IMG/VR virus record: IMGVR_UViG_3300048080_000104
Span: 1 to 51,213 of that record
Direction: 5' to 3' (one strand)
Source of the DNA: a virus
DNA length: 51,213 nucleotides
Part shown: positions 24,920 through 50,448 of the stretch, one piece after another
How positions within the stretch are numbered: the first letter of the stretch is position 1
How the letters are laid out: the number at the start of each line of letters is the position of its first letter
Position numbers and translations under genes: made by a program
The notes under the pieces: model-generated
Told to the model about the DNA's origin: nothing
The model's database searches: none
The model's input: only the letters and a program-made list of their open reading frames with translations

Positions 24920-25069
24920 TCATGCGTCCGCCAGCGATTCGTCCGGCGACGGCAGACCGTCACAGCCTGCCGGGCAGTACCACGCGTCAGGCCCTCCCCA
25001 GGGCGGCGACTCGAAGAGCATCACCGCTTCGCAGGTGGCGCAACGCGGCGGCGGGTAGGTGTACGTCAC
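24920..25069 (-). CDS. Small Zn-ribbon protein (49 aa)
   Basis: Found by hand. The GTG overlaps the nuclease stop (GTGA). VTYTYPPPRCATCEAVMLFESPPWGGPDAWYCPAGCDG.... It is the last gene of the minus arm. Confidence 0.35.
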   Translation of the reverse strand: MTYTYPPPRCATCEAVMLFESPPWGGPDAWYCPAGCDGLPSPDESLADA

Positions 25070-25527
25070 GGGCACCAACCAGCGCGTCGTCCGCCCTCGT
25101 ACCGACGCGCGAGTCCAGCCTCGACGAGCATCGCGCCAGCATCGCGCCGGTCAGCGACGACACGACAGAGAAGCCGACCGTATTTCTCCTGCGAGCATTC
25201 TTCGAGATCCACCCGCCGCGCCACCGTGAGCAGTGCCGCAAGCTGGTTACGCGCTTCGATCGCCTTCGCGCGCTCGGCGTCGCACTGGCCCTTGATCTCC
25301 GGCGTGTCGATGCCGTTGATCCGCACCGGCACGCGGTCGCCCCAGAGCGGATGAACGCCCGGGAGGCTCACGCGGATCGTGTCGCCGTCGATCACGCTCT
25401 CTACCACCACGTCGGCGAAGCGGTAGCCGTCAGCTCGGCAGATGCCGGCGAGCATCACGACCGCCATCAACACGACGAAGGCCGCGAGGGTGATCTCGTA
25501 GGCGTAGAGCCCGTCGGGCGCTCTCAC
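25066..25527 (-). CDS. Staphylococcal-nuclease (SNase/thermonuclease) homologue with an N-terminal signal-anchor
   Basis: The GTG at 25527 overlaps the lipoprotein stop (GTGA). TM segment ITLAAFVVLMAVVMLAGI, then VIDGDTIRV...VRINGIDTPE...KYGRLLCRV...EAGLA, which are the SNase catalytic and Ca-binding motifs. Confidence 0.8.
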   Translation of the reverse strand: MRAPDGLYAYEITLAAFVVLMAVVMLAGICRADGYRFADVVVESVIDGDTIRVSLPGVHPLWGDRVPVRINGIDTPEIKGQCDAERAKAIEARNQLAALLTVARRVDLEECSQEKYGRLLCRVVADRRDAGAMLVEAGLARRYEGGRRAGWCP

Positions 25528-25865
25528 TCGCAGTCCCGTGCGTCGATGTTCACCACCGGCGCCTCCGCCGGCGGCCCACTCCCCGGCAGCATCGACGCCG
25601 CGGCCGACACCAGCTTCCCGAGCCACTTGCCGAACGTGTCGGAGATAAACCCGCCCCGCACCTCGTTGACGACACCGCCGGCGCACTCATCCGTCTCCGG
25701 GTCGATCCCGTCGGCACAGCGGATGACGTAGCTGTCGCCGATGACGATGGTCAAGGAAGGCGGTGCAGTTTCTATGTGTGTTGCGCAGCCGGTGAGTAGA
25801 ATACTTGCAATAACTACAGAGCATGCGAGCCACCAAACACCGAGTACGAAAACTATTCGGTTCAC
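25524..25865 (-). CDS. Lipoprotein (lipobox LLTGC); o-spanin-like or exclusion factor
   Basis: The GTG at 25865 overlaps the holin-like stop (GTGA). VNRIVFVLGVWWLACSVVIASILLTG-C. The mature part is 87 aa with 3 further Cys and a PGSGPPAEAP stretch. Confidence 0.62.
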   Translation of the reverse strand: MNRIVFVLGVWWLACSVVIASILLTGCATHIETAPPSLTIVIGDSYVIRCADGIDPETDECAGGVVNEVRGGFISDTFGKWLGKLVSAAASMLPGSGPPAEAPVVNIDARDCE

Positions 25866-26062
25866 ACCTGCGCCCTCCGCAGCCCTAGCACAACAAGCAC
25901 GCCGCCCACCTTCTCGGCGCCGCTCTTGAGCATCGCGCACGTCTCGGGCGAGATCATCCCCGCCGCGCACACGGCATCGGCGCCGGCTGTTGCACCGACG
26001 AAGACGACGAGACCCCAGGCAGTCAGCGACTTGAACCAAGGCTTTCCGAATAGGTTAGGCAT
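25862..26062 (-). CDS. Holin-like small membrane protein (2 TM)
   Basis: ATG at 26062 with GGAGGAG 6 nt upstream. TM segments LTAWGLVVFVGATAG and VGGVLVVLGL, with a basic C-terminus. Confidence 0.5.
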   Translation of the reverse strand: MPNLFGKPWFKSLTAWGLVVFVGATAGADAVCAAGMISPETCAMLKSGAEKVGGVLVVLGLRRAQV

Positions 26063-26270: not shown

Positions 26271-26464
26271 CGCCAGAGCACTCCATCACCATGACAGGCG
26301 TTACACGGCCAAGGCCCTGCCGAATTCGAGGTGTACGTTTCCAAGTCTCCGGCAACATGCGGAGGACGCGATACAACACCAGATCCAACACAGACGGGGC
26401 ATCTATGCGGCACGAGCGATCCCCTCTCATCCCAGGCGTTGTGAATAACCACGTGCACGCTCAT
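26267..26464 (-). CDS. Small Zn-ribbon protein
   Basis: The ATG at 26464 overlaps the endolysin stop (ATGA). CPVCVGSG...CNACHGDG (DnaJ-type CxxCxGxG pairs). Confidence 0.45.
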   Translation of the reverse strand: MSVHVVIHNAWDERGSLVPHRCPVCVGSGVVSRPPHVAGDLETYTSNSAGPWPCNACHGDGVLWR

Positions 26465-26892
26465 CCCGGCCACCTCATCCCGAGCACCGCGGCCATCGGG
26501 AAGCTGCGCACGTTCACGGCGTCGTTCTGGTTGCCAGCGATCACCATCACCTCATCGCTACGGTAGCTACCGACGAGGAAACCCACATGCGCCTGTGCTG
26601 GGTTGTCGCCGCGCTTGAGCACCACGATCGCGCCGTAGGGCGCAGGCTTGATCTCGCGCCCCCAGGTAAGGTAGCTGCGCGCTGCGGCCGAGCGCGTCGA
26701 GTGGAAGTGGGCTTGCTCCAGGCACCAACAGACGAACGAGCTGCACCAGGCAATCTCATCTGTCGTCGCGTGCAGCGTCGTCGCCTCGTGGTAGGTGAGG
26801 ATCCGCTGCTCATGCGCCGGCCCCGGGATCTCCCGCACGCCGATGCGGGCCTCTTCCTTCGCGACGCGAAGCCATTCAGGCGTAAGAGACAT
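26461..26892 (-). CDS. Endolysin, TIGR02594 / NlpC-P60-CHAP-like cysteine peptidase
   Basis: ATG at 26892. SLTPEWLRVAKEEARIGVREIPG...IAWCSSFVCWCLE...HVGFLVG matches the TIGR02594 pattern (from memory). Confidence 0.72.
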   Translation of the reverse strand: MSLTPEWLRVAKEEARIGVREIPGPAHEQRILTYHEATTLHATTDEIAWCSSFVCWCLEQAHFHSTRSAAARSYLTWGREIKPAPYGAIVVLKRGDNPAQAHVGFLVGSYRSDEVMVIAGNQNDAVNVRSFPMAAVLGMRWPG

Positions 26893-26905
26893 ACTCACCC
26901 ACAGT

Positions 26906-27370
26906 CTAAAAAACGTGAGCCCATCGTTGCCGAAGAACAATCTTTGAAACGGTGGCGCTCGCGATTCCAAACTGTCTAGCAACCGAAGACCTGCTACGAC
27001 CCGTTTCACACTCTCGTCGGATGGACAACACAGCATCCTCGGTTAGCGTTGACATACCAGAGCTTTCACCGCGAGCGATGCGACCTTTTGAGCTGGCGTC
27101 CTTCATGTTGTCTTCGTTTGTGCCTAGGAAAAGATGGTCTGGCCTAACGCATCCAGGATTGTCGCATCGATGGAGAACGTGAAGGCCGCCCGCAATCGGG
27201 CCGACATGGAGCTTGTACGATGCCCGATGGGCCTTCACCCATCCCGGGTCATCTCGACCGCGGTTCATTACCCCATAGCCTTTCTTGCTCTTCGCACCAA
27301 TCCATTTCCAGCACCCGTTATCCGAAACAACCACCTTTTTCATGAAGCGGTCACGGAAATCATTCGTCAT
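26906..27370 (-). CDS. HNH homing endonuclease (HNH_3 type) with a C-terminal HTH
   Basis: CWKWIGAKSKKGYG...VLHRCDNPGCVRPDHLFLGTNEDN, then SVARQFGIASATVSKIV. GC is lower than in the flanking genes. Confidence 0.85.
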   Translation of the reverse strand: MTNDFRDRFMKKVVVSDNGCWKWIGAKSKKGYGVMNRGRDDPGWVKAHRASYKLHVGPIAGGLHVLHRCDNPGCVRPDHLFLGTNEDNMKDASSKGRIARGESSGMSTLTEDAVLSIRRECETGRSRSSVARQFGIASATVSKIVLRQRWAHVF

Positions 27371-27603
27371 CGAACACCTCGGACGAGAGACTCATCGAAG
27401 CTGGGCGGTCCGACCCACCCGACCAGCTCGACCCAGTACGCCTCAGAGCACGTATAGCAGAACAGCTCCAGCGTTCCGTTCTGCTCGTCGAGCTTGTACT
27501 GGCTGTTGTTCATCCCGCCGCACTCCGGGCAGCGCACCTCGAGCTTGCCGCCGACGCGCTTCCAGTCGTGCGGAGCGATTTGCCTCGGCTCGGTGCGACT
27601 CAT
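27367..27603 (-). CDS. Zn-ribbon protein
   Basis: ATGA overlaps at both ends. CPECGG...CYTC. Confidence 0.5.
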   Translation of the reverse strand: MSRTEPRQIAPHDWKRVGGKLEVRCPECGGMNNSQYKLDEQNGTLELFCYTCSEAYWVELVGWVGPPSFDESLVRGVR

Positions 27604-27839
27604 TTCTCGACCTTCCCGATGATGTCGTTAGGCACTCGCGGGATGATCCGCTCCTTGCCCGCGTCTCGCCTCTCGATCGCCATCTCTCGACACAGCTCGA
27701 ACCCAGCGCGGTAGCTGTCGCCGCGCTCCTGATCGGGAGTGCGCGACGCGGCGAACTGGAGGCCGTTTGCGGCACCCAGAGCAGCGATCAGCGCAGCGAG
27801 TAGACGCGGATCTTTGAGCAGCGCTGCGAATCCGTTCAC
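27600..27839 (-). CDS. Hypothetical protein with a hydrophobic N-terminus
   Basis: GTGA overlap at the start. FAALLKDPRLLAALIAALGAANG. Confidence 0.45.
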   Translation of the reverse strand: MNGFAALLKDPRLLAALIAALGAANGLQFAASRTPDQERGDSYRAGFELCREMAIERRDAGKERIIPRVPNDIIGKVEK

Positions 27840-28342
27840 GGTTTCTTCTCCAGCTCGTCGATCTTCTCTTGGAACCGCTCTGACCTGGCCTTCCAGTAAC
27901 GGCCGTCCGATTCCGACTTCAACGTGGTATCGAGGTCGCGCATCTCTCGCTGTAGGCGGTCGTCGAGCTCGCCGATGTTCTCGTGGTTCCGATCTGCGTC
28001 TGCCTGCTGGATTAGCTTCGCCTCTTCGAGCCTCGATAGCACGACCGGATGACCGTCGAGTCGATCGTGGTGGACGAAATCAGCCTCGACTCGCTCCAGT
28101 CGTTGCACGTACGGGAGCGAGAACCCGCCGACGATCAGCGCTAGCGCACCGATGCACGCGACGATCACCGTCAGCGGTGTTCGCGCCGCGGTGCGCGAGT
28201 CGGCCATGAACGACTTGACGTCGGACGTGAACGATTTTAAGTCATCGTGCAGCCCTGTAAGATCGCTCTCCAGCCTGATCTGTCCCTGCTCCAGCGTACG
28301 CAGGCGTTTGTCGATCGTGACCCGACCGTTCGGCTCAGCCAC
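27836..28342 (-). CDS. Coiled-coil membrane protein (central TM)
   Basis: GTG with GAGGTG 5 nt upstream. TM segment LTVIVACIGALALIVGGFSL is flanked by heptad-like charged regions. Possibly i-spanin-like. Confidence 0.55.
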   Translation of the reverse strand: MAEPNGRVTIDKRLRTLEQGQIRLESDLTGLHDDLKSFTSDVKSFMADSRTAARTPLTVIVACIGALALIVGGFSLPYVQRLERVEADFVHHDRLDGHPVVLSRLEEAKLIQQADADRNHENIGELDDRLQREMRDLDTTLKSESDGRYWKARSERFQEKIDELEKKP

Positions 28343-28558: not shown

Positions 28559-28978
28559 CTACGGGCAGGTGCCGCACTGACTCACTCCATTGACCACGGC
28601 GCAGCTCTTGCAGCCTGCGACAAACGCGCGGACGAAGCCCTGCCCGAAGTCGTTCGCGTTGACCGCACCATTGCCGTCTCCGTCCCAACCGAACGGCTGC
28701 GTGCAGTAGACGTGATCGCTGGTCTGGCTAGGCGGACTGTCGTTGTATCCAGAGGCTTTGGTGATCGCGTAGACGGCAAGCCGGCCGGTGCAGCTCAGGG
28801 TTGTCCGGTGATCGGTGGTCGTGTCGAGCCATCGGCCCGTGTCGTCATACCACTCGTAGGTTTCTGCGCCAGCCGAGGGCAGAGCGCAGAAGTAGACCGG
28901 GCTCGTCGCGGTCCAGCACTCGGCACCTGCTGAAGTGGAGAGTGCGATCACGATCATTGCGACGGCGCTATGCCTCAT
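28559..28978 (-). CDS. Secreted Cys-rich protein F with a dockerin/EF-hand-like loop
   Basis: ATGA overlap at the start. Signal peptide MRHSAVAMIVIALSTSAGA-E. 8 Cys in the mature part. DGDGNGAVNAND motif. Confidence 0.65.
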   Translation of the reverse strand: MRHSAVAMIVIALSTSAGAECWTATSPVYFCALPSAGAETYEWYDDTGRWLDTTTDHRTTLSCTGRLAVYAITKASGYNDSPPSQTSDHVYCTQPFGWDGDGNGAVNANDFGQGFVRAFVAGCKSCAVVNGVSQCGTCP

Positions 28979-29979
28979 TCGATCTCCACGGCCTCGCCGA
29001 TCCAGAAGTTTTGGTTAACAGGTACGCGGGCCTGCATCACGTGAGACACGAATTGATGACCCGCGCAGCAAGCTCCCTCTGCGAAGAGCTGCAAGTGCGG
29101 CAAGTTCCACGAAGTCGAGCTGGGCCCTTCGCCTGCGTCGTGGTTGACGTTCAATGTCTCACCGGTAGTGAGATAGAAGATTCGGAAGCGGTAGTAGAGG
29201 TGCGTTCCGATCTGGTCAGCGCAGGCTTCGATCCGACACCAATCCGCTTGACACTTCTGATGGAATTGCGTTGGTGTGTAGTATGCCGCGCTAGGCGCGC
29301 TGTATCGTGGGTCTGCAATCTGGATGTAGGCGTCTCCCGTACCATCCGGAACGTGCTGGAGGTCCACGTGCGTCTGAGTCGCAGGCGGAATATTGGACAG
29401 CTGCAGATTCTTGAGCCGCTGCCCTCCGCCAAAACCACCGCTCGGTATCCCTGCATCGCTTGAATAACGCAGGTAGGCGCGAATACAGACCGTCTCCTCG
29501 TCCACGTCGGTGACCGGGTTGCCGTAGACGAACTGGATTCCGCCGATCTTTGTTCGGTAGACGTACGGGTTAGCCCCGCTCTGGAATGGGACACTCGCAT
29601 CGTTGGCGCGAGGATTCGATGCGGTGGTCGCCCAGTCGACGTCCCGCATCGTGACGGCTTCCGGGTCGTTCGGGTTGCTATCGCACCCCTTCGTGACCGA
29701 GTCCTGTGGATTCCAAAAGCGGTCGGGCTCTGCCGCGAGATTCGCGCCGGCATTGAGCGGCTCCGAGCATACGCAGCCATCGACGAGATCTGCGCAACGC
29801 TGCTCCATACCGACCGCCGCAGGCGGAATGAACGAATAGACCGTATCGCCCTTCGTCTCCAGGTCGCCTTTACCGACAATCCCCAGTAGCAGTAGCAGCG
29901 GCGCTAGAAAGCTAGATGCTGTCACCGCAGACCCCATTGGTGTCGATCTGACAGGAGAACGTGCCATTGAGCACTGCAC
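28975..29979 (-). CDS. Secreted Cys-rich protein E
   Basis: 334-aa ORF; the true start may be 29967 or 29937. Hydrophobic core FLAPLLLLLGIVG. 10 Cys after the signal. Confidence 0.62.
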   Translation of the reverse strand: MQCSMARSPVRSTPMGSAVTASSFLAPLLLLLGIVGKGDLETKGDTVYSFIPPAAVGMEQRCADLVDGCVCSEPLNAGANLAAEPDRFWNPQDSVTKGCDSNPNDPEAVTMRDVDWATTASNPRANDASVPFQSGANPYVYRTKIGGIQFVYGNPVTDVDEETVCIRAYLRYSSDAGIPSGGFGGGQRLKNLQLSNIPPATQTHVDLQHVPDGTGDAYIQIADPRYSAPSAAYYTPTQFHQKCQADWCRIEACADQIGTHLYYRFRIFYLTTGETLNVNHDAGEGPSSTSWNLPHLQLFAEGACCAGHQFVSHVMQARVPVNQNFWIGEAVEIE

Positions 29980-30658
29980 ACGCGGAGTCGCCCGCGTTGT
30001 CGCTGTCGCGCAGGATCAGGCACGCTGCACCGGAGCCGGCGCCACTGGTGATCGTGCCGGGGACGTTCAAATTGTTCGATGCGTCGATCGTCACGGCGGA
30101 GTTGACGATGTCGCCCGTTGTCCCGCTGAACTTTGCGACTGCGAGATCGGTACTCGTGCCAGCGCTTTTCGCGTCGAGCTCGGCTTGCGTCGCGACGTCT
30201 GCCGCGACCTCCGAGGCGTTCACCGATGCGGCCTCTAGCTCCCCGTTCGCGTCGAGATCCGTCGCCACTCCGAAATCACCAGCGTCGGGTACGTCATCAT
30301 CGACTGCGCAGTCCTGTGCTGCGTTTGCGCCATCGACACCACGCGGATAGTTCCCCACAGAGCAGTTTGCGCCATCGACACCTGCAGCGACTCCGCCGAT
30401 GGTTGTACCCGACGTCAGGTCGTTTGGTGTAGCCGTAGAGGTATCGGTGGCGAGGAGAGAGTCGATGCGCGCGTCGTCATCATCTACGCCGACTTCGATC
30501 AGTGCCCAGTTCGCGTTCATCGTCCCAGGTGACTGCACCCCTGGGTTCGGCTGTGCTGTCGTTGTGATCGAACTCGCCGCGACATCTCCAGCGATCAGTA
30601 CGGCGATTACGACCCTTCCCAGAAGTTGCCAGTGGACCATGTGTTCCCCGTCTCCCAT
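29912..30658 (-). CDS. Secreted/anchored fibre-like protein D
   Basis: Hydrophobic N-terminus LLGRVVIAVLIAGDVAASS. AVAKFSGTTGDIVNSAVTIDASNNL is a tail-fibre-type motif. 6 Cys. Confidence 0.62.
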   Translation of the reverse strand: MGDGEHMVHWQLLGRVVIAVLIAGDVAASSITTTAQPNPGVQSPGTMNANWALIEVGVDDDDARIDSLLATDTSTATPNDLTSGTTIGGVAAGVDGANCSVGNYPRGVDGANAAQDCAVDDDVPDAGDFGVATDLDANGELEAASVNASEVAADVATQAELDAKSAGTSTDLAVAKFSGTTGDIVNSAVTIDASNNLNVPGTITSGAGSGAACLILRDSDNAGDSACAVLNGTFSCQIDTNGVCGDSI

Positions 30659-31485
30659 GTGTTCACCTCACTATCGCCTGCGCCAACTTGTTCGCAGCCA
30701 CGCCACACGCTCACGTCGTCGTTGCGAATGAACGCGAGCACGTTTGGCGAACGCGCCTGCAAGTGGACGCCAACCCGCTCACCGGATCCGCAGCCAGGAA
30801 AGAAGCTGTCGCAAAGCTCCTGAGTCTTCGATAGGTCAGGACTGCCGTAAACCGTCTGCCATGTTGTTGGGTTGTTAGGTGCAGTCGCGCCCATGTTCCA
30901 TATCGCGAAGTGCGCCGTGTCGGTCGCGGCATTGTACTGCCAGCACGCTCCTAGATAGTCGCCGACGACGAACGCTCCAAGATTCCCGATCTCCTGGCCA
31001 ACCTCCAGATCCGTGAAGAACGTAAACTGTGTGCAGGGGAGCCCGTCGTAGCAGAACAGCGAGTAGTAGCTTGCGGAAACGTCCCCACTCTGGTGCCAGA
31101 TGATGAGCCCCGGTCCCGCCCAGCCGTCGCTGCCAGCGGTTCCGTGATCGAATCCTGTTAGTTTGACAGCGGCGCAACCTGCCGTCGAACCGATGTCGGT
31201 ATCGAATCGTGCGATGCCCTCTTGTCCGCTACACGCACCGTCCGTCGCTTCGCGGTCGCGCTCGATAGATCCCGATGCAGCGTGGCCCTGCACAGAACAG
31301 TCGCCTTGAGCGTCTTCGTTGTAAGTTGTCCAGCCAGTCGTCGAGCCCGAGTCGAAGGTCTGCGTAGCTCCGACCTGTTCGCAATCGTTCGGCGGCGGCT
31401 CGAAGAAGGAGCCACCGACGAGCTCCCCGGCTCCTGCAGCCGACGCCAGCAGGAGAATGAGGATGAGAGGAATAGTGGCGCTCAT
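30607..31485 (-). CDS. Secreted Cys-rich protein C
   Basis: ATGA overlap at the start. Signal MSATIPLILILLLASAAGAG-E. 10 Cys. C-terminal NTWETGNTWSTGNFW repeats. Confidence 0.68.
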   Translation of the reverse strand: MSATIPLILILLLASAAGAGELVGGSFFEPPPNDCEQVGATQTFDSGSTTGWTTYNEDAQGDCSVQGHAASGSIERDREATDGACSGQEGIARFDTDIGSTAGCAAVKLTGFDHGTAGSDGWAGPGLIIWHQSGDVSASYYSLFCYDGLPCTQFTFFTDLEVGQEIGNLGAFVVGDYLGACWQYNAATDTAHFAIWNMGATAPNNPTTWQTVYGSPDLSKTQELCDSFFPGCGSGERVGVHLQARSPNVLAFIRNDDVSVWRGCEQVGAGDSEVNTWETGNTWSTGNFWEGS

Positions 31486-31922
31486 TGTGCGCTGATCGCG
31501 CGAACATGGCAGAACGCCGCCTCAGGTGCGGTTGTCAAGCTCACCACGTCTATCTCGATGTAGCTGTCGGCCGCCCAGGGTGAGCCCGTTAGCGTTGCGT
31601 CCAAATAGGTGGTGTCGATCGCTGCCAGCGTCACATCGCCTCCGATCGTTGCGCAGCTCGTCGCGCCGGCGCCGGTGCATTGCCGGAGCTGCAACACGAG
31701 TGCAGCTACGGAGCCGCCTCGCGCCCAGCAGGACAACGAGGTACCGGTCAAGGCCCTATCGAGCCTCACAACCTGATTGACGGCCGAAGCGCTCGGGTTC
31801 GGTATCGCGAAGCTGACGGCCACCTTCTCGATGACTGCGCTGCGACTCTGCGCATTGCCGAGCGTGGGAAGCAGCAGCGTCAGCAGAAGGGTAAGAATCA
31901 AGCGCATTCTTTCAGTCCTCAC
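31482..31922 (-). CDS. Secreted protein B
   Basis: GTGA overlap at 31922, or ATG at 31907. Signal MRLILTLLLTLLLPTLGNA-Q. 4 Cys. Confidence 0.62.
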   Translation of the reverse strand: MRTERMRLILTLLLTLLLPTLGNAQSRSAVIEKVAVSFAIPNPSASAVNQVVRLDRALTGTSLSCWARGGSVAALVLQLRQCTGAGATSCATIGGDVTLAAIDTTYLDATLTGSPWAADSYIEIDVVSLTTAPEAAFCHVRAISAQ

Positions 31923-33799
31923 TTCGCAGTGTCCTGCAAGGCTACGCAGACCGTGTAGGTATCACCGGATGGATTGGGTGCAGTCCCCACGTCGAATCGG
32001 ATGCCGGCGCCGGACGGGAGTAGCCGGTCGGCATCGGCAACGAGTACGGGCTGCCAAGTGGCCGTCGAGGCACTGCCGACGCAGGTCAGCGTTGCGTTGA
32101 GACCGATCGCCGCACCTGCGAGCGTCTCCACAGTCATCGTCGCATTTGTTGTCGGCGTTACCGTTGTGTCGCTACGGCAGGACATCGCAGCGACGGTGGA
32201 AGGCTGCCATGTCATCAGCGGAATGTTCACGTTGTCGGACGTGTCGGAGACGTTGCTGAACTGATAGCAGTGGTTTTTGACCGGCGTGATGCACTTCTGG
32301 GTGAATAGTCCGTCGCCGTAGCAGTGCTGTCCGCCCATGCTTATCATCGCGTCCGTCCAAACGCCCGCATCGCTCGTGTCGATCGTGATATCGCCGCTGC
32401 TTAGCATCGTACCCGCAGGCCCACCGAGGCTCGCGTTCGATGCGGTCGGGATCGACACGCGTGAGTAGTTCGCGTCGGCGTACCCGCCACGCCCAAGATG
32501 GAGAACGTTGTCGCCGGTCTGGCCGCTGAGCCAATAGAGAGGCGTGCTCGTTCCGTCGACTACGCCACGGCGCTGATCCCAGTCCACACGATTCGTCGCT
32601 GTGTAGAGCGTGTAAAAGAAAGGTCGCCACGGCACGGAGTCCGCGCTTGGGGCCCCGCTAACGGTCCCAGTCGGCGTGCAGCTCGGTCCGTTGCAAGCGG
32701 TGATCGTGTTGCCGCTAGCTGGCGGTACATGGTCCACGCAGGTCATCCTCACGAGTGCCCCGTTGGATAGATCGGCATCCGCCTGCGCTGGTCTGCAGAC
32801 CGCGCCATTGCTGAACGTGATATTCTGGCCTAGCGCGATAGCACCAACGCCGCCCGAAGCAATCGTGACGCGGAACGTGGAAGGCGAAAACTGCCAGTAG
32901 AACTCAACGTACTCCGCGCCGGAGCGCTGCAATGCATCGTATCCGTACTCGACGCTAATCGTCGAAGCGTAGAGGGCCGGGTCTGCGTTTCCGAAGTTGT
33001 AGATTGAGAGACCATGAATCGGGTTGACGACGTTGATGGAGGGCGTCGACAGAACTCCGGACTCGATCGTGCCGATCCGTGGACCAGGGAACGGATTCGG
33101 GTCTGCACCTGCTCCATCGGCTACACCCGGGCAGTCATCAAGATCGCAAGTCGTCCACTCGGTATCCTGTCGAAAGGCATCGACGACAGCGGCATCGATG
33201 AATGGCGGGACATAATCGTCTACCCAGCTCGAGCCGTTGAATACGAGCACCTTGTCGACTTCTGCGCCGGTGGTGTCCACGTCGCTGAGCGACGTCAGCG
33301 TCAGCAAGGCGTCTATCCAGTTCGTCCCGTTGAACCGAAGCACATCGTCAACATTGGCGCCGGCTGTGTCGACGTCGGCGAGCACGGATACGCCCTCGCT
33401 TTCGAGGACGAAGTTGACGCCCGTGAGCGTCTGGAGCTCGCCGATCGAGTTAAGCTCCGATTCGAGCAGTAGAGTCGTGAAGTCGCACAGGAGCCCATTC
33501 GGAGGAGACTCGGAGCAGAACGGAGCATTGTTGATTGCGATCGCGGTGAGTGCGGTTGATTCCACACCGCCACCTTCGAGGTTCAATGTGATCGATCCGC
33601 CGCCGCCACCGCCACCACCTGCACACAGCTCCTCTCCGAGATCCTGGAGGTTTTCGCTCGTGCACGTGGTGCCCGTCTCATCGAACGAGATCTGAGACGC
33701 ATTGGCGAGCCGAGGCGGGCCGTCTCCTGTGCCCTGCCCGTAGATCGTGAGCGGCATGCACACGAGTGCCGCCGCGAGAATGGCTCTCGTGAAACGCAT
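31919..33799 (-). CDS. Secreted fibre-like protein A (626 aa)
   Basis: ATG with an AGAGGA RBS. Signal MRFTRAILAAALVCMPLTIYG-Q. A G8 run. Two LxDVD...VLxFNGxxW fibre-type motifs. 16 Cys in the mature part. Confidence 0.78.
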   Translation of the reverse strand: MRFTRAILAAALVCMPLTIYGQGTGDGPPRLANASQISFDETGTTCTSENLQDLGEELCAGGGGGGGGSITLNLEGGGVESTALTAIAINNAPFCSESPPNGLLCDFTTLLLESELNSIGELQTLTGVNFVLESEGVSVLADVDTAGANVDDVLRFNGTNWIDALLTLTSLSDVDTTGAEVDKVLVFNGSSWVDDYVPPFIDAAVVDAFRQDTEWTTCDLDDCPGVADGAGADPNPFPGPRIGTIESGVLSTPSINVVNPIHGLSIYNFGNADPALYASTISVEYGYDALQRSGAEYVEFYWQFSPSTFRVTIASGGVGAIALGQNITFSNGAVCRPAQADADLSNGALVRMTCVDHVPPASGNTITACNGPSCTPTGTVSGAPSADSVPWRPFFYTLYTATNRVDWDQRRGVVDGTSTPLYWLSGQTGDNVLHLGRGGYADANYSRVSIPTASNASLGGPAGTMLSSGDITIDTSDAGVWTDAMISMGGQHCYGDGLFTQKCITPVKNHCYQFSNVSDTSDNVNIPLMTWQPSTVAAMSCRSDTTVTPTTNATMTVETLAGAAIGLNATLTCVGSASTATWQPVLVADADRLLPSGAGIRFDVGTAPNPSGDTYTVCVALQDTAK

Positions 33800-43477: not shown

Positions 43478-44704
43478 CTAGAATCTGGACACGGTCAAGG
43501 CAAAGCCAGCGGAGTCGCTCTCTGCGCTAAACGGCAGCGATACGCGCACGCTGTCGTTATTCCCCTTGGCGCCGATATCCGGCGTCCCGAATAGGATGTT
43601 GTTGATGGAGATGATCCGCGCTCGCGTCGCGTCATCGAGCCGGAAGGCCAGCTTGCTGTAGGTTCCCGCCTCCGCGATGCGCACCAGATCGGCGTTCGTC
43701 ATGTACATGACAACCGATCCATCGAGCTTCGGGGTTCCGATGCCGATGTCACGCGAGCCGCTGAAACCGAGCTCCGGTTCTGTGCGTAGCGCGTTGTCGA
43801 GTGTGAAGTCGATCGACTCGACACGCACGAGGCCGCCGAAGCCCGTTTCGGCCGTGGTCGTGAAGGCGCCCACCATCTTCTGCTTGAAGTGGTCGACGGC
43901 CTGAAGCCTGGTCGTGGTCCACTTCGCCGTCGGAGCGCCTACAGCGGTCGACGTGCTGGTCGCCTGGAGCTTGCCCAGGAAGCCGAACGAGTGCTCAAAG
44001 ATCGCGTTGGAGTTGAGCCGCAACCCCCACCGCGCCACCCGCATGCCGGTATACAGCGAGTATTCCGGCGTGGTGAGGTCGCTGTACGCGCGCTCGATCG
44101 TGTAGCTCTTCTTGGTGGTTCCCGTGTGGACCGTCGATCCCGTGAGTGTGGCCGAGGTCGGGCCACCAGCGACGACCGGCGCACCAGTCGACGCCAGAAC
44201 GCCCTCGGCCGTTCCATTGTTCGCGTCTGCCCTGGTCAGGATGTGCACGTACATCGTGCCTTGTGCCATGCCGGTGATCTTGATCCAATCGGCGATCGCA
44301 ACGTTCGTGAGCGCACCGGTTCCGGCGAGCGTGAAGACTCCGCCGGCGGGAGTGCCGATCGTGAGTGACACGCCCACGTTGTTGGCGATCGTTGCGAAGT
44401 CGCTCATACACGCGCCTTCGATCAGAGGATCGAAGCCGGTGAGCGTATTGATCGGAGACGAAGCGGCGGGCGTGACGAGTGAGTCCTCGCTCGTGATGTC
44501 TCCAGAGGCATTCACGCCGACCCGGATCGCACCGGCGGGCTGCCGCGTCGGGTCGATTTCGGCCGACTGAATCTGGTTGATATCCAGCTTCAAGCTTTCG
44601 TTGTTGAAGCGGAGGTACTTGTAAATCCCTGCGCTCGAAGGCTCCGCCGTCCCGAACGTCGTCTCTTCCGCAATCGCCAGTCGAACTGAACTCGCGTCGC
44701 CCAT
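43478..44704 (-). CDS. Major tail (tube) protein
   Basis: 408 aa with a strong GAGGAGAC RBS. Positioned between the neck genes and the chaperones. Confidence 0.78.
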   Translation of the reverse strand: MGDASSVRLAIAEETTFGTAEPSSAGIYKYLRFNNESLKLDINQIQSAEIDPTRQPAGAIRVGVNASGDITSEDSLVTPAASSPINTLTGFDPLIEGACMSDFATIANNVGVSLTIGTPAGGVFTLAGTGALTNVAIADWIKITGMAQGTMYVHILTRADANNGTAEGVLASTGAPVVAGGPTSATLTGSTVHTGTTKKSYTIERAYSDLTTPEYSLYTGMRVARWGLRLNSNAIFEHSFGFLGKLQATSTSTAVGAPTAKWTTTRLQAVDHFKQKMVGAFTTTAETGFGGLVRVESIDFTLDNALRTEPELGFSGSRDIGIGTPKLDGSVVMYMTNADLVRIAEAGTYSKLAFRLDDATRARIISINNILFGTPDIGAKGNNDSVRVSLPFSAESDSAGFALTVSRF

Positions 44705-44715
44705 GGGGTCTCCTC

Positions 44716-44751
44716 AAAAGCGAAGGGCCGACTCGTCGTGAGCCGGCCCTT
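44716..44751 (-). terminator. Hairpin plus short U-tract upstream of the major tail gene (partial terminator or RNA stabiliser)
   Basis: 8-bp stem aagggccg/cggccctt (44723-44730 / 44744-44751). It is followed on the minus strand by CGCUUUUGAGG. Confidence 0.35.
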
Positions 44752-44781
44752 GCCCGTGAAATCAGTTTCTTTCGACGACGC

Positions 44782-45195
44782 CTACGTCGGCGTGTGCTCC
44801 CACCGGAATCGGATCGAGCAGCCAGAGTGCCAGAAAGCGCCGCCCGGGTCTCTTGCCCCGGGTCGGTATTCGGCCTCGTAGCAGGAAGCTGCGCCTACGC
44901 GGATGCCCTGGAAGGCGATCGCGATGGCATCGGCGATTGCGCGGCCGCGCGCGGAGCCCTTCCCGAGCTCGGTGTAGATCTCGACTATCATCAGCCCGGT
45001 ATGGTGAGCGATTCGTCCGCCGATCTCGTTGATTTGGCCGGTATCGAGGAGCCGCAGCTCGGCCCACTCGTCATCGATCGCGCGTGGCGTCCCGTCGGGC
45101 TGGGTGTTCTCTCCGACGAGCACGACGCTTGCAGCCGTCAGCGTGGTAGCGAGAAGTGCCGTCAGGTCGTTCGCGACGCTCTCGAAGTCGGCCAC
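44782..45195 (-). CDS. Tail terminator-like protein (DUF4128-like)
   Basis: 137 aa with a GTG start. Position and the pattern ...WAELRLLDTG...GLMIVEIYTELGKGSARGRAIADAI. Confidence 0.6.
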   Translation of the reverse strand: MADFESVANDLTALLATTLTAASVVLVGENTQPDGTPRAIDDEWAELRLLDTGQINEIGGRIAHHTGLMIVEIYTELGKGSARGRAIADAIAIAFQGIRVGAASCYEAEYRPGARDPGGAFWHSGCSIRFRWEHTPT

Positions 45196-45660
45196 CTAGT
45201 CGATCTTCTCGCTGGACGCGCGCTCGGCGATCCGTTCGAGGTTCGCCTCGGCCCGCAATGCGGCGCTCTCGTAAATGTGCCGCGGCTCGTTCGTCGCGCT
45301 GCCGTACTCGAGCGACCCGGCGTAGTAACGGCGGTTGGCAATCTGGACTCGCGCGTAAGGCTCTGTTGGCTCCACGCGGCCTTCGACCAGCGGCGGCTCG
45401 AAGAAGGTGGGCGGCTTGAAAGGCTGGTTCGGGCCTGCCCGGTTCGGCGACTCATAGAGAATCGCCTCTCCGTCGCCCTGCTCGATCACGTGCTCCGAGC
45501 GGTAGGCTCCGGTAAGTACAGGGCTCGTCTCGACGATGTCTCGGTAGGCATCGGCCACCGCCTCGGCCTGAACGTCCTGATAGAGCTCTTGGAGCTTGCG
45601 CACCGAGTCGAGCAGCACCTTGCCTTGCGCCTCGATCTCTCTTCCGATGTCCTGCGCCAT
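45196..45660 (-). CDS. HK97 gp10-family neck / tail-completion protein
   Basis: 154 aa. The N-terminal helical part plus TSPVLTGAYRSEH match the gp10-family pattern. Confidence 0.72.
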   Translation of the reverse strand: MAQDIGREIEAQGKVLLDSVRKLQELYQDVQAEAVADAYRDIVETSPVLTGAYRSEHVIEQGDGEAILYESPNRAGPNQPFKPPTFFEPPLVEGRVEPTEPYARVQIANRRYYAGSLEYGSATNEPRHIYESAALRAEANLERIAERASSEKID

Positions 45661-45663
45661 CGA

Positions 45664-46047
45664 TTACTCCGCGTCGATCGGGCCGCGCAGAAGCAGCCGG
45701 TACATCCAGATGTCGGCATCGGTGCCACGCATCGGATCGAGAGCGACGATCGCGCGACGATAGGTGGCACCGCCTGCGTAGACGAGCGCATCCCCTGACT
45801 TCGGGACGATCGATACGTCTTGCAGAGCCTGCGCTTCGAGTAGCAACAGCTCATCACCTTCGACGATTGCGACGCCGGCGATCGCCGTCTCCCGCGAGTG
45901 CTGGAATACGCCGTATGCGGTTGCTGTAGCCTCGGTGGCAGAGGCCACGGTGTTGGTTGCCGGATTCCAGGCACCGGGCGTGATCGAGACGTAGGTGTGT
46001 GCTTTCCCGCGTCTGCGCAGCAGCGCCGTGTGATCGGCCTTCGGCAC
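45664..46047 (-). CDS. Head-tail adaptor / head-closure protein
   Basis: 127 aa with a GTG start. It sits in the position of the small beta-barrel-type head-closure protein. Confidence 0.6.
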   Translation of the reverse strand: MPKADHTALLRRRGKAHTYVSITPGAWNPATNTVASATEATATAYGVFQHSRETAIAGVAIVEGDELLLLEAQALQDVSIVPKSGDALVYAGGATYRRAIVALDPMRGTDADIWMYRLLLRGPIDAE

Positions 46048-46884
46048 CTAGAAGTCCTGGAATGGGAAGAGAAGCGCCTGTGCAGACTGCTCGGCCGCAG
46101 AGATGCCGCTCGACGAGGAGGAGCTACTCGCCCAGCGGATCGTCGATGCGCCCGAGATCGACTCCTCGATGATGCCGCTATTGCCGGTCGCGCGTGTCGT
46201 GTAGCTCTCGCGCGCCAGCATCACGACAGCCCGGTAGATGCCGCCCGGGAGGTTCGAGAACGTGATCGCTCTTGTTGCAGCCGCTTCGGTAACCAGCGTC
46301 TCGTTCACGGTGATCTTGCTGGTAGTGGTGGTGACAACACGGCGCAGTCCGTTGTTCGCGCTGTTTGTGAAGCCAGCGGCCGTGATGAGATCGCCAGGCT
46401 TCGAGTGGACTTTGAATAGCGCCGTACTGTTGTACGAGTTGTCTGCGCTGGCAACGCTGACGGAGCCCGAGAGATCGTCGTCAGCCACGAAGTAGCCGGC
46501 TGTGGTCGTGATCTCCCATGCGTTTGGATCGTCCTGCGAGCTGAATGTCCCGCTCGGGCGGTACAAGAACCCAGCCTCTCGGCTGTCGATCTCGTAGTCG
46601 GTCAGGCTCTGTGAGCTGCTCTGGTAGAGCACCGCATCGAGCGAGGCGATCGGACGGACGCCGAGCAAGAGGCGCGGCCGACCAGTGCCAGCGAGCGTCT
46701 GCTTGTACTGGGCTCGGATCAGCGGGCGCCCTAGCATGATCTCGATCCGGCTCGACGCCTGATCGAGCAGCATCTGCAAAACGGCATCATCTCCGGCACC
46801 AAAGATGCCCAGCTCCACCTTGAAATCGACCAGCGGGACCAGCGAGGTTTTCGCCGGAGATACGACGATCTCGATGGAGCCCAT
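46048..46884 (-). CDS. Head-tail connector (gp6-like) with an inserted domain
   Basis: 278 aa. The N-terminus LVPLVDFKVELGI...DDAVLQMLLDQASSRIEIMLGRPL is gp6-like. Confidence 0.65.
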   Translation of the reverse strand: MGSIEIVVSPAKTSLVPLVDFKVELGIFGAGDDAVLQMLLDQASSRIEIMLGRPLIRAQYKQTLAGTGRPRLLLGVRPIASLDAVLYQSSSQSLTDYEIDSREAGFLYRPSGTFSSQDDPNAWEITTTAGYFVADDDLSGSVSVASADNSYNSTALFKVHSKPGDLITAAGFTNSANNGLRRVVTTTTSKITVNETLVTEAAATRAITFSNLPGGIYRAVVMLARESYTTRATGNSGIIEESISGASTIRWASSSSSSSGISAAEQSAQALLFPFQDF

Positions 46885-46887
46885 GGG

Positions 46888-47109
46888 CTACTCGGCGCGA
46901 TCGTGTCCGCTGCGGTCGAGACGGTCCAGGCCGCGCTTCTCGGCTCTCACCTTCTCGGCTCGCACGTGCTCTGGCTCTTGCATAGACGGCGTCACCGGCT
47001 CGGCCAGTATGGCGCGCACCGCCGCAACGGCCTTCGCGAGGCTCACGTCATCCGACGCGCAGCCCTGCGTAGCGCGCATGATCGCCTTGAACAGCTCGTG
47101 ATCGGTCAT
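46888..47109 (-). CDS. Hypothetical small protein
   Basis: 73 aa with an ATG start, just downstream of the capsid terminator. Confidence 0.45.
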   Translation of the reverse strand: MTDHELFKAIMRATQGCASDDVSLAKAVAAVRAILAEPVTPSMQEPEHVRAEKVRAEKRGLDRLDRSGHDRAE

Positions 47110-47120
47110 CCATCGTCCCC

Positions 47121-47158
47121 CGAAACAAGGGCGGACCCGGCCGAAGCCGAGCCCGCCC
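47121..47158 (-). terminator. Rho-independent terminator after the major capsid gene
   Basis: Long GC stem (47129-47141 pairs with 47146-47158, with two mismatches). It is followed on the minus strand by UUGUUUCG. Confidence 0.5.
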
Positions 47159-47174
47159 CGTTTATCTCACCCCG

Positions 47175-48494
47175 CTAGAGCGAGGTCGCGCTGGTGATCC
47201 CTGCCGCCAGCTGGCCAGCAGAGGTATCGATGTTGTTCCCGGCGATCCGCTGCGAGATGATCCAAATCACGCGGCGAGTGTCGAAGAAGAAGTCCTTCGA
47301 TGCCTCTACCGTGATTCCACGTCGGCGACCAATCGCGTAGTTGCGCGACACGTCGCCGAAGTAGATGTCACCGGCCGTCAGGTCCACCTCGTGAACGGGC
47401 TTGCCGAGCAGCGTACCGACGGCCCCCGCCATGCGGTCTCCCGTCGATGCGTCGCTGATCGCCATCGGCGGATCGAGCAGACTGCCGTAGAACGGCCTGC
47501 CCATCCCGTCGCGAACGTTGCTCATGAACCCGAGCACGTCTCCGGCGACGAGCCACATCGCGTTATCGCGATAGCGCTGGGGGACATTCCGGTACATCGC
47601 AAGCACGTCTCGGAACTTCAACTCCCCGGTACTGATCTCGGCGTAGGCCGTGCCGGCTAGCTTCGTGACGTGCGGAGCCGTGCCGGTCCCCGCCTTCAAG
47701 AACTCGGCGTCCTCCAGCTCTGCCAGCGCATCTCCCATCAGCTGCACGAAGACGGGCACGATGTTCGCCGCCTCATCGTCGAGCATGTTCCGCCCGAGGA
47801 TCAGCTTCCCGATCGCGTCGTGCGCGATCAGCGGCTTCTGCGCGAGCGCCGGCTCGCCACCCGTGAGGGGTGACGTGGCCTCGCCCTGCATGTACGCCGT
47901 GGCCGCGGCCGCCGTCGGGATGTTGTGCTCCTGCTGGGTCATGATGTACGTGCGCGCCCATCGCGACATCTTCGCGATCTTCCGGAGTGCGATCGCGACG
48001 AGGCTCTCGAGCGGTCTCGGGAGCAGAACACCACCGGTTCCGTCTGCGAATCCACCGACGCCAGACGCGACACCCTCCAACGTGTCGGCACGATAGAGGT
48101 CGGGGAAGATCCCCGAGAGCTTCGCGTCGGCCTCCATCCGCCCGGCGAAGTCACCATCGCGGATCGAGCGGAGCCACTGGAGATTCCAGTGATCGGAATC
48201 GAACGTGCGAAGCCTGCGCTCGGGCTCGGCCAGTCTCATCCGTTCCGGGCTCGAATCCCACGGCCGCGACAGCCGCGCGACGGACTCCCCGTTTCGATTC
48301 AGAAGATCCGGAATCCCGCTTCGATCCGGTCGCTCGTAGGCCGCGATGATCTCGCTCACCCCTTCGAGCATCTTCTGTTCGTGACGCATCGCGATCGCTT
48401 CGAGCTTCGCGTGGATCGCAGCCTCGAAACGGGCGACACCCTCAGGACTCTCGGGGCTCGGGGGCCCCAGCGTAGTCGGTTCGGTCATGATCAT
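47175..48494 (-). CDS. Major capsid protein (HK97 fold) with an N-terminal delta-like region
   Basis: 439 aa with no Cys and a typical HK97-family pattern. The likely start is the third codon (ATG at 48488, AAGGAG 8 nt upstream). Confidence 0.9.
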   Translation of the reverse strand: MIMTEPTTLGPPSPESPEGVARFEAAIHAKLEAIAMRHEQKMLEGVSEIIAAYERPDRSGIPDLLNRNGESVARLSRPWDSSPERMRLAEPERRLRTFDSDHWNLQWLRSIRDGDFAGRMEADAKLSGIFPDLYRADTLEGVASGVGGFADGTGGVLLPRPLESLVAIALRKIAKMSRWARTYIMTQQEHNIPTAAAATAYMQGEATSPLTGGEPALAQKPLIAHDAIGKLILGRNMLDDEAANIVPVFVQLMGDALAELEDAEFLKAGTGTAPHVTKLAGTAYAEISTGELKFRDVLAMYRNVPQRYRDNAMWLVAGDVLGFMSNVRDGMGRPFYGSLLDPPMAISDASTGDRMAGAVGTLLGKPVHEVDLTAGDIYFGDVSRNYAIGRRRGITVEASKDFFFDTRRVIWIISQRIAGNNIDTSAGQLAAGITSATSL

Positions 48495-49711: not shown

Positions 49712-50444
49712 GTTGGGCGACTCCTTCATTCGGTGCGCTCGGGGCCTCTTGTGCCTTCTGCACTTCGAGGAACCCTTTTCGCATGAGAGGCGAGAACTGG
49801 AATGTACCCACGTGATTGACCTGCTTACTCAGGTCGTGGTCGATGTAGATCTCGTGGCCTGCGGCGATCACCTTCTCACAGAAGACGTAATCCTCACCGC
49901 GGAAGATCCCCCTCTCGGGGACCCACTGGTATTCCCACCACGGCAGCGCGATGTCACGCAGCACGTCGAGGTGGATCATCATGATTCCGGTGCCGACGCG
50001 AGAGACCTTCTGGATCCCCGTGCTGTCAGCGTTTGTCGGGACCTCGAGGTTATTCGCGTCGCGCGCGGTCACGTAGTACGGATGACGGCGCGCCATGCAG
50101 TTGATCGCGACCACCGGGAGGTGATGGCGGACCATGCGCACCGCGAGATCACGCGGGAACTCCATGTCGCTGTCGATCATGAGTATGTGCGTCCAGCCAG
50201 CCTCGATGGCCACCTGACAGAGAAGCTGGCGAGACAGCGGCAGCATCGAATACTGGGCCGTCTGGTATCCGATGATGAGCCCGTCGGAGATCGATTGCGC
50301 AACGCAGTGGACGAGCGATAGGCAGTAGACCGCTAGTGCGGTGTCCTGGAGCGGAGTAGCAATCAGGACCTTGGGCGTTTCCGTGAGCGTCTGGAGTCGG
50401 TGCGCTTTGCGCGCGATCAGCTTTCGGACCTTCGATGCCTTCAC
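49704..50444 (-). CDS. Glycosyltransferase (GT-A fold)
   Basis: 246 aa with a GTG start. ILMIDSDMEFP (DxD), GTGIMMIH, RGEDYVFCEK and a terminal HVG match a phage/bacterial GT2-like pattern. Confidence 0.75.
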   Translation of the reverse strand: MKASKVRKLIARKAHRLQTLTETPKVLIATPLQDTALAVYCLSLVHCVAQSISDGLIIGYQTAQYSMLPLSRQLLCQVAIEAGWTHILMIDSDMEFPRDLAVRMVRHHLPVVAINCMARRHPYYVTARDANNLEVPTNADSTGIQKVSRVGTGIMMIHLDVLRDIALPWWEYQWVPERGIFRGEDYVFCEKVIAAGHEIYIDHDLSKQVNHVGTFQFSPLMRKGFLEVQKAQEAPSAPNEGVAQHG

Positions 50445-50448
50445 ACGG

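Follow-up and report, generated by a model that had tools for sequence, protein, structure and literature searches.

Tailed-phage tails are assembled in the cytoplasm, and standard models provide no exported fibre; what would a tailed phage do with a run of secretory, cysteine-rich proteins encoded behind its tail genes? The question is raised by six consecutive genes, here called A to F, in the virus record IMGVR_UViG_3300048080_000104 of IMG/VR. The window, by which we mean the whole analysed stretch of 51,213 nucleotides, corresponds to a whole JGI contig; it appears to be a siphovirus genome of 51.2 kb, complete and circularly permuted, and a near-identical contig of 48.9 kb is present in another data set. 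The six genes lie on the minus strand at 28559-33799, between the last tail-tip gene and the lysis block, within the late structural operon, and take up about 10% of the genome (Table 1). A first-pass annotation had proposed that each gene opens with a classical signal sequence made of n-, h- and c-regions (n-h-c), that the mature products hold even numbers of cysteines, and that the genes form an exported, disulfide-bonded, fibre-like set. We find that the feature is real, statistically strong and recurrent. With a probability of roughly 0.8, the six genes form a late extracytoplasmic module whose products are exported by Sec, have their N-terminal segment cleaved off or buried, and acquire disulfide bonds outside the cytoplasm.

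All six open reading frames (ORFs) were found in place, and a recount of the cysteines in the mature parts of A to F was identical to the earlier one: 16, 4, 10, 6, 10 and 8, or 54 in total and even in every gene. The full-length totals are 17, 4, 10, 6, 11 and 8, the additional residues being C14 of A and, in the longest reading of E only, C3, both in or before the signal segment. Cysteines account for 54 of 1635 residues (3.3%) in the six products versus 29 of 7171 (0.40%) in the other 21 ORFs of the structural module (odds ratio 8.4, Fisher p = 1e-20). Their scarcity elsewhere in the particle was confirmed, with none in the capsid, the portal or the tape measure of 1527 amino acids (aa), one in the tube protein, and 1, 2 and 3 in the tail-tip proteins. 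The third-position GC of the six genes, 0.68-0.78, supports their coding status.

Signal peptides were called with a crude, home-made detector of the n-h-c pattern plus the (-3,-1) residues, not with SignalP. The detector was positive for all six genes (for D from the second ATG only) versus 1 of 57 other ORFs, a holin-like protein of 79 aa (Fisher p = 1e-7). The proposal of a classical signal sequence on every gene holds for A, B, C and F, which have textbook signal peptides, but not for D and E, whose segments are weaker or atypical. In D, the signal-like segment MVHWQLLGRVVIAVLIAGDVAASS has an Asp within its hydrophobic run, and a start at the first ATG makes the n-region acidic. The n-region of E is long, and its site, IVG/K, is unusual (slashes mark predicted cleavage).

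Comparison with related phages gives the signal segments a different kind of support, as they are kept in position and not in sequence among the homologues of A, E and F. Five relatives of A were found in a collection of 5.8 billion proteins; they align with its C-terminal two thirds at 38-45% identity. When 1.84 billion representatives were searched with a profile built from the A family (E < 1e-3), the result was at least 287 clusters from uncultured phages that carry the C-terminal domain of A, of which 20 are full-length and the others match the last ~120 residues only. The A homologues numbered P0002-P0005 and P0007-P0021 in our searches all have signal peptides, and these are non-homologous in sequence (for example, MLRRTALAVLALLHLASGASA/Q and MRWLALAALACLVASSSMA/Q). 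Across the family, 131 representatives start with Met; the detector calls a signal peptide in 107 of them, and most of these peptides follow an MKK-LLL-AxA pattern. Four homologues of E have classical signal peptides that stop right before a conserved EQRC mature start, and eight of their cysteines are invariant. The homologue of F in a podovirus-like locus, L001, has its own signal peptide, KRKFGVTQLSCSLLLLIVTLPASA/ESW, which lies upstream of the called start.

The family also tells which cysteines would pair. In 143 of 146 members, only 0-4 residues follow the C-terminal domain, which carries 4-6 conserved cysteines, typically ends in ...RQ, and is marked by the motifs ENLAAADDN, TLEDxxGNAMT and PETDEYTIC; its host proteins range from 112 to 1140 aa, their contigs from 38 to 68% GC, and the ten members that were looked up sit on contigs of 2-46 kb. 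Among 146 aligned domains, three pairs of cysteine columns are gained or lost together with a single mismatch each: columns 17 and 120 (both present in 131, neither in 14), columns 47 and 77 (134 and 11), and columns 49 and 53 (64 and 81), with p = 1e-15 to 3e-41. The first two correspond to C511-C618 and C541-C573 of A, which column covariation predicts to be disulfide pairs. Beyond the domain, six cysteines are invariant in the A family and the others come and go in twos: both cysteines of a TCDLDDC motif found in three sequences are gone in two, and C218/C223 and C493/C503 are jointly gained or lost. A and its relatives contain 8-31 cysteines, in even numbers.

Parity extends this pattern to the N-terminus. 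Of 107 representatives, 96 have an even mature count (p = 4e-18), but only 73 have an even full-length count. Thirty-two members have a cysteine within the signal peptide, and 26 of these have an odd count that turns even without it. Because parity is even after removal, the N-terminal segment appears to stand outside the oxidised fold. Cleavage would account for this, and so would a membrane anchor that stays uncleaved; cleavage is favoured by the short h-regions and by the AxA sites. The earlier expectation that cysteines should be conserved and paired in homologues was thus borne out for the A family by co-varying pairs and by counts that are even only once the signal peptide is taken off.

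We examined 13 other loci, from IMG/VR, JGI and Logan, and in 12 of them the family member carries a signal peptide. Its neighbours do so too: signal peptides were called in 20 of 62 neighbours within three genes versus 6 of 145 other ORFs (odds ratio 11, p = 1.5e-7). The typical string is a small signal-peptide protein, the fibre, and then one to three further signal-peptide proteins, and the block either closes the tail module, ahead of holin-like genes, or, in podovirus-like contigs, comes right after the capsid gene. Several signal-peptide neighbours match Laminin_G_3 (loci L012, L013 and L018), so the arrangement mirrors a fibre-plus-adhesin module. The contigs of A's relatives are of several kinds, namely a syntenic siphovirus, a podovirus-like contig with an SU10-type adaptor, and contigs with the gene placed after a Mu-gpT-like capsid gene, and the neighbours of these relatives are again cysteine-rich proteins with signal peptides. 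The order in the syntenic siphovirus is tape measure, homologue of the 532-aa tail-tip protein (g532), Laminin_G protein, homologue of the 375-aa tail-tip protein (g375), and A homologue. With signal peptides conserved in position, co-varying cysteine pairs, parity and recurrence in 13 loci, the claim of exported, disulfide-bonded proteins in a structural operon stands.

Two proteins in the same genomic slot have twin-arginine-like starts, MSLITPRRALIGAATAG in L026 (8589-9752, EBPR siphovirus 2 gp70) and MPMTRRALIGAGFSLW in L043 (902-3940), the latter being a family member with 21 cysteines. Judged by these starts, some proteins of this slot may use twin-arginine translocation (Tat) rather than Sec. 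In L001, a response-regulator receiver protein and a sigma-70-family factor are encoded between the signal-peptide genes and the lysis genes (12788-14120).

Is the set made of fibres? The proposal of a fibre-like gene set was partly upheld: A alone is demonstrably fibre-like. The LxDVD...VLxFNGxxW motif pointed out in A forms two repeats, through which A matches P0006 at E = 9e-7. P0006 is a protein of 554 aa with no signal peptide and 1 Cys that matches PHROG 9729, 'tail fiber protein', at 1e-16; the signal-peptide fibre of L013 matches the same PHROG at 1e-47 and, in tblastn, finds tail fibres and virion structural proteins of cyanomyoviruses as well as the gp17-type fibre of a T7-like Limnohabitans phage. 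The matched fibres from cultured phages lack a signal peptide and contain 0-2 cysteines, so by sequence the shaft module seems to exist in two forms, one cytoplasmic and poor in cysteine, the other bearing a signal peptide and paired cysteines. The homology does not reach B to F. The motif thought to be fibre-like in D could not be linked to a known fibre, as searches of the cultured-phage database, IMG/VR and the PDB gave D nothing beyond a hypothetical protein of a Mycobacterium phage at E = 0.4; C has no homologue, and E belongs to another kind of family (see below).

Fibres of PHROG 9729 (SRSM4_041 of S-RSM4, the 706-aa virion structural protein of S-TIM5, and the gp17-type protein of Limnohabitans phage YIMV22061) have LxDVD...FNGxxW-type repeats in common with A. 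They also resemble it in their distal slot in the structural module and in their modular build of N-terminus, shaft and C-terminal domain. They differ in having recognisable virion-binding N-termini, for example of the T7 gp17 type, no signal peptide and 0-2 cysteines, whereas a signal peptide opens A and its relatives, and the conserved disulfide-bonded domain that closes them is seen in no cultured phage.

An AlphaFold2 model of A was built from 18 sequences as a monomer. Its N-terminal 200 residues are of low confidence, as is expected for a trimeric shaft modelled as a monomer, and residues 207-626 are beta-rich, with a predicted local distance difference test score (pLDDT) of ~77-94 over residues 210-410 and 500-620 and lower values over 410-490. 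Foldseek found no significant global match in the PDB. Locally, the beta domains match the Pam1 and GP4 capsid decoration proteins, Ena endospore-appendage subunits, ExsFA/BxpB and a tail fibre of phage 7-7-1; in BFVD, the matches are proteins of uncultured phages, the phiAxp-2 tail fibre, phage proteins with collagen repeats, and stand-alone jelly rolls of ~130 aa. Ena fibres are hardened by disulfides. Ena, ExsFA/BxpB, Pam1 and GP4 are the best local matches (probability ~1), but they have no sequence similarity to A, and local matches with a moderate target TM-score of 0.4-0.5 do not imply membership in those families. The fold search asked for by the first-pass annotation thus gave local jelly-roll matches for A and a lectin-like half in a low-confidence model of E, with no firmer fibre or lectin assignment. 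An eight-glycine run in A (33596-33619) has cysteines on both sides and is probably a flexible hinge; a Gly run is also present in P0003 and P0010. The N-terminal module that contains it would be a candidate docking or anchor module.

Searches of family libraries place the six products outside known families. None has a significant match in Pfam, PHROGs, NCBIfam or PADLOC, the sole library match being PHROG 29436 for A at E = 0.061, and no enzymatic domain was detected in any of them by these scans. Pfam gave no explanatory domain in A or 51 family members. Peptidase_S74 shares with the A family a conserved domain at the extreme C-terminus behind variable fibre parts, across phages of unrelated hosts; the domain of the A family differs in being cysteine-bonded and in also occurring alone behind a signal peptide, no S74 match in Pfam was found in A or the 51 members, and no Ser-Lys dyad is evident. 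An outer-membrane beta-signal or type IX sorting domain was considered and rejected, as the domain is Cys-rich, typically ends in ...RQ, and has no Pfam match to Por_Secre_tail or CHU_C. The cultured-phage database held no match to the DNA of the region, to A, to the consensus of the C-terminal domain, or to the family protein P0126, and a PDB sequence search gave nothing for A, D, g375 or g532. The lipobox pattern [LVI][ASTVI][GAS]C is absent from all six proteins (139-626 aa), C14 of A being preceded by A-L-V; with no lipoboxes or coiled coils, a lipoprotein or spanin reading was rejected.

The A subfamily has no relative in 185,579 species reference genomes and is therefore not prophage cargo; an origin as prophage or moron was rejected on the lack of a genome match for A and of promoter or terminator signals. 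Full-text literature searches turned up no description of Sec signal peptides on tail-fibre homologues or exported virion proteins of tailed phages, a negative that covers subscription journals thinly and is not proof. A thus defines a large family of tail-fibre-like phage proteins that is undescribed in the libraries, solved structures, cultured phages and literature that we searched.

The other genes are less connected. For B, neither the related loci nor the family libraries that we searched yielded a homologue, and the idea that B is a stand-alone copy of the C-terminal domain of A was rejected: hmmsearch --max gave E = 9e-4 with 10 sequences, but the hhalign probability was 0.3%. The homologue search found no relatives of C. 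F carries a dockerin- or EF-hand-like motif, DGDGNGAVNAND, at 28649-28684, and a calcium-loop-like DxDxNGxVxxxD motif is common to F, its L001 homologue and the 98-aa product of the last gene in the L002 cluster; we rejected F as a dockerin, there being the motif only and no Pfam match. D and F have similar cysteine-bearing endings, SACAVLNGTFSC... (29912-30010) and KSCAVVNGVSQCGTCP (28559-28600), a similarity that is not significant (E = 0.4), and the L001 homologue of F ends in KSCASGQCVPTGP. Read from sequence, these endings could be inter-subunit disulfide tails.

E is alone among the six in having cellular relatives. From these, E is best described as a member of a secreted bacterial family and not as a fibre. 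One homologue, P0156, is encoded inside a bacterial locus for exopolysaccharide or O-antigen biosynthesis (L020, 923-13701), another adjoins cadherin/Big_9 proteins, and distant relatives occur in metagenome-assembled genomes of Myxococcota, Deltaproteobacteria and Thioalkalispiraceae. The L020 locus also contains four GT4 glycosyltransferases, Wzy_C, a flippase, a deacetylase, a low-molecular-weight phosphatase and a GDSL lipase. The secreted eight-cysteine family may have a role in exopolysaccharide processing. The model of E has a mean pLDDT of 52.7, and the matches of its C-terminal half to LNS/LamG, galectin-like and phage carbohydrate-binding-module folds, at probability 1, are a hint only; E may have a lectin- or glucanase-type (ConA/LamG) fold. 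Neither E nor C matches a Laminin_G-type family in Pfam.

The six genes are co-oriented and closely packed. B/C and E/F overlap by 4 bases, C/D and D/E by more, depending on the start used, and ribosome-binding sites of the GAGG type precede A, B and D. We saw no sigma-70-like or intrinsic-terminator consensus between the six genes and the tail genes, or flanking the block. The structural operon spans the ends of the window (1-5162 and 43478-51213), all on the minus strand; terminase and portal fall at the low end, and at the high end the HK97-type capsid gene is accompanied by those for the connector, the tube, the tape measure and the three tail-tip proteins.

Table 1. Positions of the six genes, the parts of A and the neighbouring phage genes in the window
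Feature	Position	Strand	Description
Gene A, 626 aa	31919-33799	-	Signal peptide, N-terminal Cys/Gly-rich module, shaft repeats, central beta-rich domain, C-terminal jelly-roll; 16 mature Cys
A, signal peptide	33737-33799	-	MRFTRAILAAALVCMPLTIYG/Q; holds a single unpaired Cys
A, N-terminal module, residues 22-110	33470-33736	-	4 Cys, Gly8 run; common only to the syntenic siphovirus homologue P0003 and to P0010
A, two shaft repeats, residues 140-163 and 171-194	33218-33382	-	LxDVDTxGAxVDxVLxFNGxxWxD; homologous to annotated tail-fibre repeats
A, central beta-rich region, residues 207-490	32330-33181	-	Invariant motif PGVADGAGADPNPFPG; Cys pairs gained or lost together
A, C-terminal jelly-roll domain of ~120 aa, residues 500-623	31931-32302	-	Predicted pairs C511-C618 and C541-C573
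Gene B, 141 aa	31482-31907	-	Signal peptide MRLILTLLLTLLLPTLGNA/Q; 4 Cys
Gene C, 292 aa	30607-31485	-	Signal peptide MSATIPLILILLLASAAGAG/E; 10 Cys; ORFan
Gene D, 248 aa (29912-30658) or 242 aa (29912-30640)	29912-30658	-	Acidic; 6 Cys, four in the last 32 residues
Gene E, 334, 330 or 320 aa (28975-29979, 28975-29967, 28975-29937)	28975-29979	-	Signal peptide; 10 mature Cys, 8 invariant in homologues
Gene F, 139 aa	28559-28978	-	Signal peptide MRHSAVAMIVIALSTSAGA/E; 8 Cys
Three tail-tip genes, 532, 479 (Laminin_G_3) and 375 aa	33888-38057	-	No signal peptide; 1-3 Cys each
Last tail-tip gene, 375 aa	33888-35015	-	Adjoins A on the upstream side
Lysis block	26461-28342	-	Directly downstream of the six genes; XhlA-like 168-aa membrane protein, two small genes, HNH gene, TIGR02594/CHAP endolysin
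Portal	2216-3538	-	Low end of the window
Terminase	3717-5162	-	Low end of the window
Capsid	47175-48494	-	High end of the window; HK97-type

The three tail-tip genes have homologous and syntenic counterparts in locus L002. Homologues of the 375-aa protein are encoded directly upstream of signal-peptide clusters in L002 (8825-9970) and L009 (12-1094), and this protein is the best candidate for a cytoplasmic receptor binder or for a docking partner of A. On the other side of the six genes, a 154-aa ORF of the lysis cassette (26906-27370) overlaps the start of the endolysin ORF (26461-27036); by eye its sequence resembles an HNH endonuclease, and it may be a mobile insertion. A Pfam HNH_3 gene lies near the lysis genes of L001. 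Both loci also encode, near the lysis genes, a lipoprotein with an LTGC lipobox (25524-26039 in the window, 15351-15662 in L001) and a common ...VIRCADGIDPETDECAGGVVNEVRG... motif; in the window its gene overlaps an ORF of the SNase family (25066-25686). It is probably an outer-membrane lipoprotein of the spanin type, and because such a lipoprotein is found near the lysis genes here and in L001, the host is probably diderm.

How might such proteins serve the phage? We propose that the six genes would be transcribed late, together with the tail genes, and that each product would cross the inner membrane by Sec, have its signal peptide removed, and be oxidised in the host periplasm to a disulfide-stabilised, beta-rich protein. 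A would be of the tail-fibre type: its shaft repeats would be followed by a central domain peculiar to the family and by a C-terminal jelly-roll knob that two disulfides hold together (in many relatives, three). B, D and F would be small or acidic cysteine-rich partners. The proteins would gather in the periplasm and reach the cytoplasm-built particles only when holin, endolysin and spanin merge the compartments. At that moment A, perhaps D, and their partners would dock on finished virions as accessory, oxidation-hardened appendages that bind host glycans. Actual export, signal-peptide cleavage, a trimeric fibre shape, glycan binding and docking on virions are what we infer from the patterns above. 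The whole explanation, including docking of the fibre members at lysis, is without precedent, and we hold it tentatively, at a little short of even odds. Docking is favoured because of the fibre homology, the canonical fibre slot, the composition of fibre, lectin and small partners, the absence of A from bacterial genomes, and the presence of a long shaft that has no obvious use in a soluble protein.

Known systems offer partial likenesses. Filamentous-phage g3p, which serves the virion in adsorption, has a Sec signal peptide and is stabilised by periplasmic disulfides; inoviruses, however, assemble at the membrane during extrusion, whereas the present phage is a tailed one with terminase, portal, HK97-type capsid, tape measure and cytoplasmic assembly. 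Cor of T1/phi80-type phages is an exported receptor-inactivating lipoprotein of the same kind as Llp of T5. Llp is an exported lipoprotein encoded beside the receptor-binding gene, and it inactivates the receptor (PMC9586334). Like A to F, Llp and Cor are phage-encoded, Sec-exported and placed next to tail-tip or receptor-binding genes, with an extracytoplasmic function tied to the receptor; unlike them, each is a single protein of ~60-80 aa with a lipobox, whereas here six late-operon genes encode products of 139-626 aa without a lipobox, at least one of which is fibre-like. The nearest functional analogues are the mosaic adhesive trimer (MAT) fibres of Bdellovibrio, which combine a Sec signal peptide with a long trimer resembling a phage tail fibre and with modular tips (TNF-like, lectin, beta-sandwich), and which show that tail-fibre architectures can be exported and work outside the cytoplasm (PMC10769870). 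MAT proteins are cell-encoded on the chromosome and have a conserved ~130-aa domain right after the signal peptide and variable tips; in the A family, it is the part behind the signal peptide that varies and the extreme C-terminus that carries the conserved domain, and the contigs are phage-like.

Several points weigh against our proposal, some of them touching export and others docking. The signal-peptide calls depend on a home-made detector, those of D and E are atypical, and B, C and D have no homologues that could lend comparative support. About 18% of the family representatives have no signal peptide by this heuristic; some are mis-called starts and some may be real. Parity and covariation are blind to the difference between a cleaved signal peptide and an uncleaved membrane anchor. 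Many family members consist of a signal peptide and the domain only, at 110-150 aa. We know of no route by which periplasmic proteins join tailed-phage particles, and the time for docking would be a matter of seconds at about the moment of lysis. We identified no domain for docking: what follows the signal peptide varies and is often of low complexity, and conservation lies at the C-terminal end. The mature N-terminus of one subfamily does line up with that of the S-TIM5 virion fibre, which would speak for docking, but at motif level only and without significance (E = 0.39), and no PHROG covers the motif. The three cytoplasmic tail-tip proteins, one with a lectin domain, could already bind receptors, and E, which comes from a cellular secreted family with one member in an exopolysaccharide locus, is a better fit to a free exoprotein.

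The alternative that best survives takes up this last point. The proteins may be exported and never join the particle, acting as periplasmic or released exoproteins that bind or process envelope polysaccharide of the host around lysis. They might loosen the matrix for escape of progeny, or destroy or mask receptors on debris or on the infected cell, as a larger analogue of the T5 Llp-type proteins. All of the evidence for export and disulfides applies equally to such proteins, the small members made of signal peptide and domain are readily accommodated, and no new assembly step is required. The homologues of E are chromosomal secreted proteins, one of them in the locus with glycosyltransferases, Wzy, flippase and deacetylase; the C-terminal half of E resembles ConA/LamG folds, in a model of the low mean confidence given above; and Laminin_G_3 proteins are among the signal-peptide neighbours in other loci. 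There is also a precedent in T5 Llp, an exported protein whose gene lies next to a receptor-binding gene (PMC9586334). What speaks against it is a long shaft, homologous to tail fibres, without obvious use in a soluble protein, the lack of a detected enzymatic domain or PADLOC match in the six, their position in a late structural operon, unlike that of early exclusion genes, with a tenth of the genome given over to them, and the absence of the family from reference bacterial genomes and prophages. We regard it as a serious contender that nonetheless probably does not hold. A more specific version, in which a free protein acts as decoy of the phage's own receptor binder, was rejected: A to F have no similarity to the cytoplasmic tail-tip proteins, and no paralogy was found among them.

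The products might also stay in the inner membrane by uncleaved signal anchors, facing the periplasm, with a spanin-like role in lysis or as a block to the entry of superinfecting DNA. The cluster adjoins the lysis block, the cleavage regions of D and E are atypical, and parity and covariation would equally fit cysteines buried in an anchor. We consider this improbable: in most members, a short h-region is followed by an AxA-type site, as is typical of signal peptidase I substrates, lipoboxes and coiled coils are missing, the models are beta-rich, separate genes exist for holin-like, endolysin and LTGC-lipoprotein functions, and the podovirus-like loci place the cluster beside the capsid gene and not the lysis genes. 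The textbook expectation for this gene position, ordinary cytoplasmic fibres whose hydrophobic N-termini would serve, for example, for burial in the baseplate or for insertion into the host membrane at infection, and whose cysteines would bind metal or oxidise after release, accords with the homology of A's shaft to known tail fibres and is the least likely of all, since hundreds of unrelated N-termini at 38-68% GC retain the n-h-c pattern together with its small residues at -3 and -1, cysteine parity is even only without the N-terminal segment, strict pairwise covariation fits disulfides and not metal sites, homologous fibres that have no such segment have 0-2 cysteines, and the E homologues are cellular secreted proteins.

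Our preferred explanation remains export followed by docking on virions at lysis. It would mean that in some tailed phages a part of the host-recognition apparatus is made beyond the cytoplasm, a two-compartment assembly undescribed for Caudoviricetes, and we put this forward as possible, not as probable. If docking is true, tailed-phage morphogenesis has an unseen extracytoplasmic branch, infectivity depends on the Sec and Dsb systems of the host, and the interval from holin triggering to envelope rupture becomes an assembly step. If the proteins are free, they belong to a large, unrecognised class of oxidation-hardened phage exoproteins aimed at glycans of the host surface, with consequences for how phages leave biofilms, for receptor dynamics, and for the discovery of enzymes or adhesins. 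Annotators who label such genes 'tail fibre' overlook the signal peptide. Either way, at least 287 clusters now labelled 'hypothetical' contain an unannotated, disulfide-bonded jelly-roll domain.

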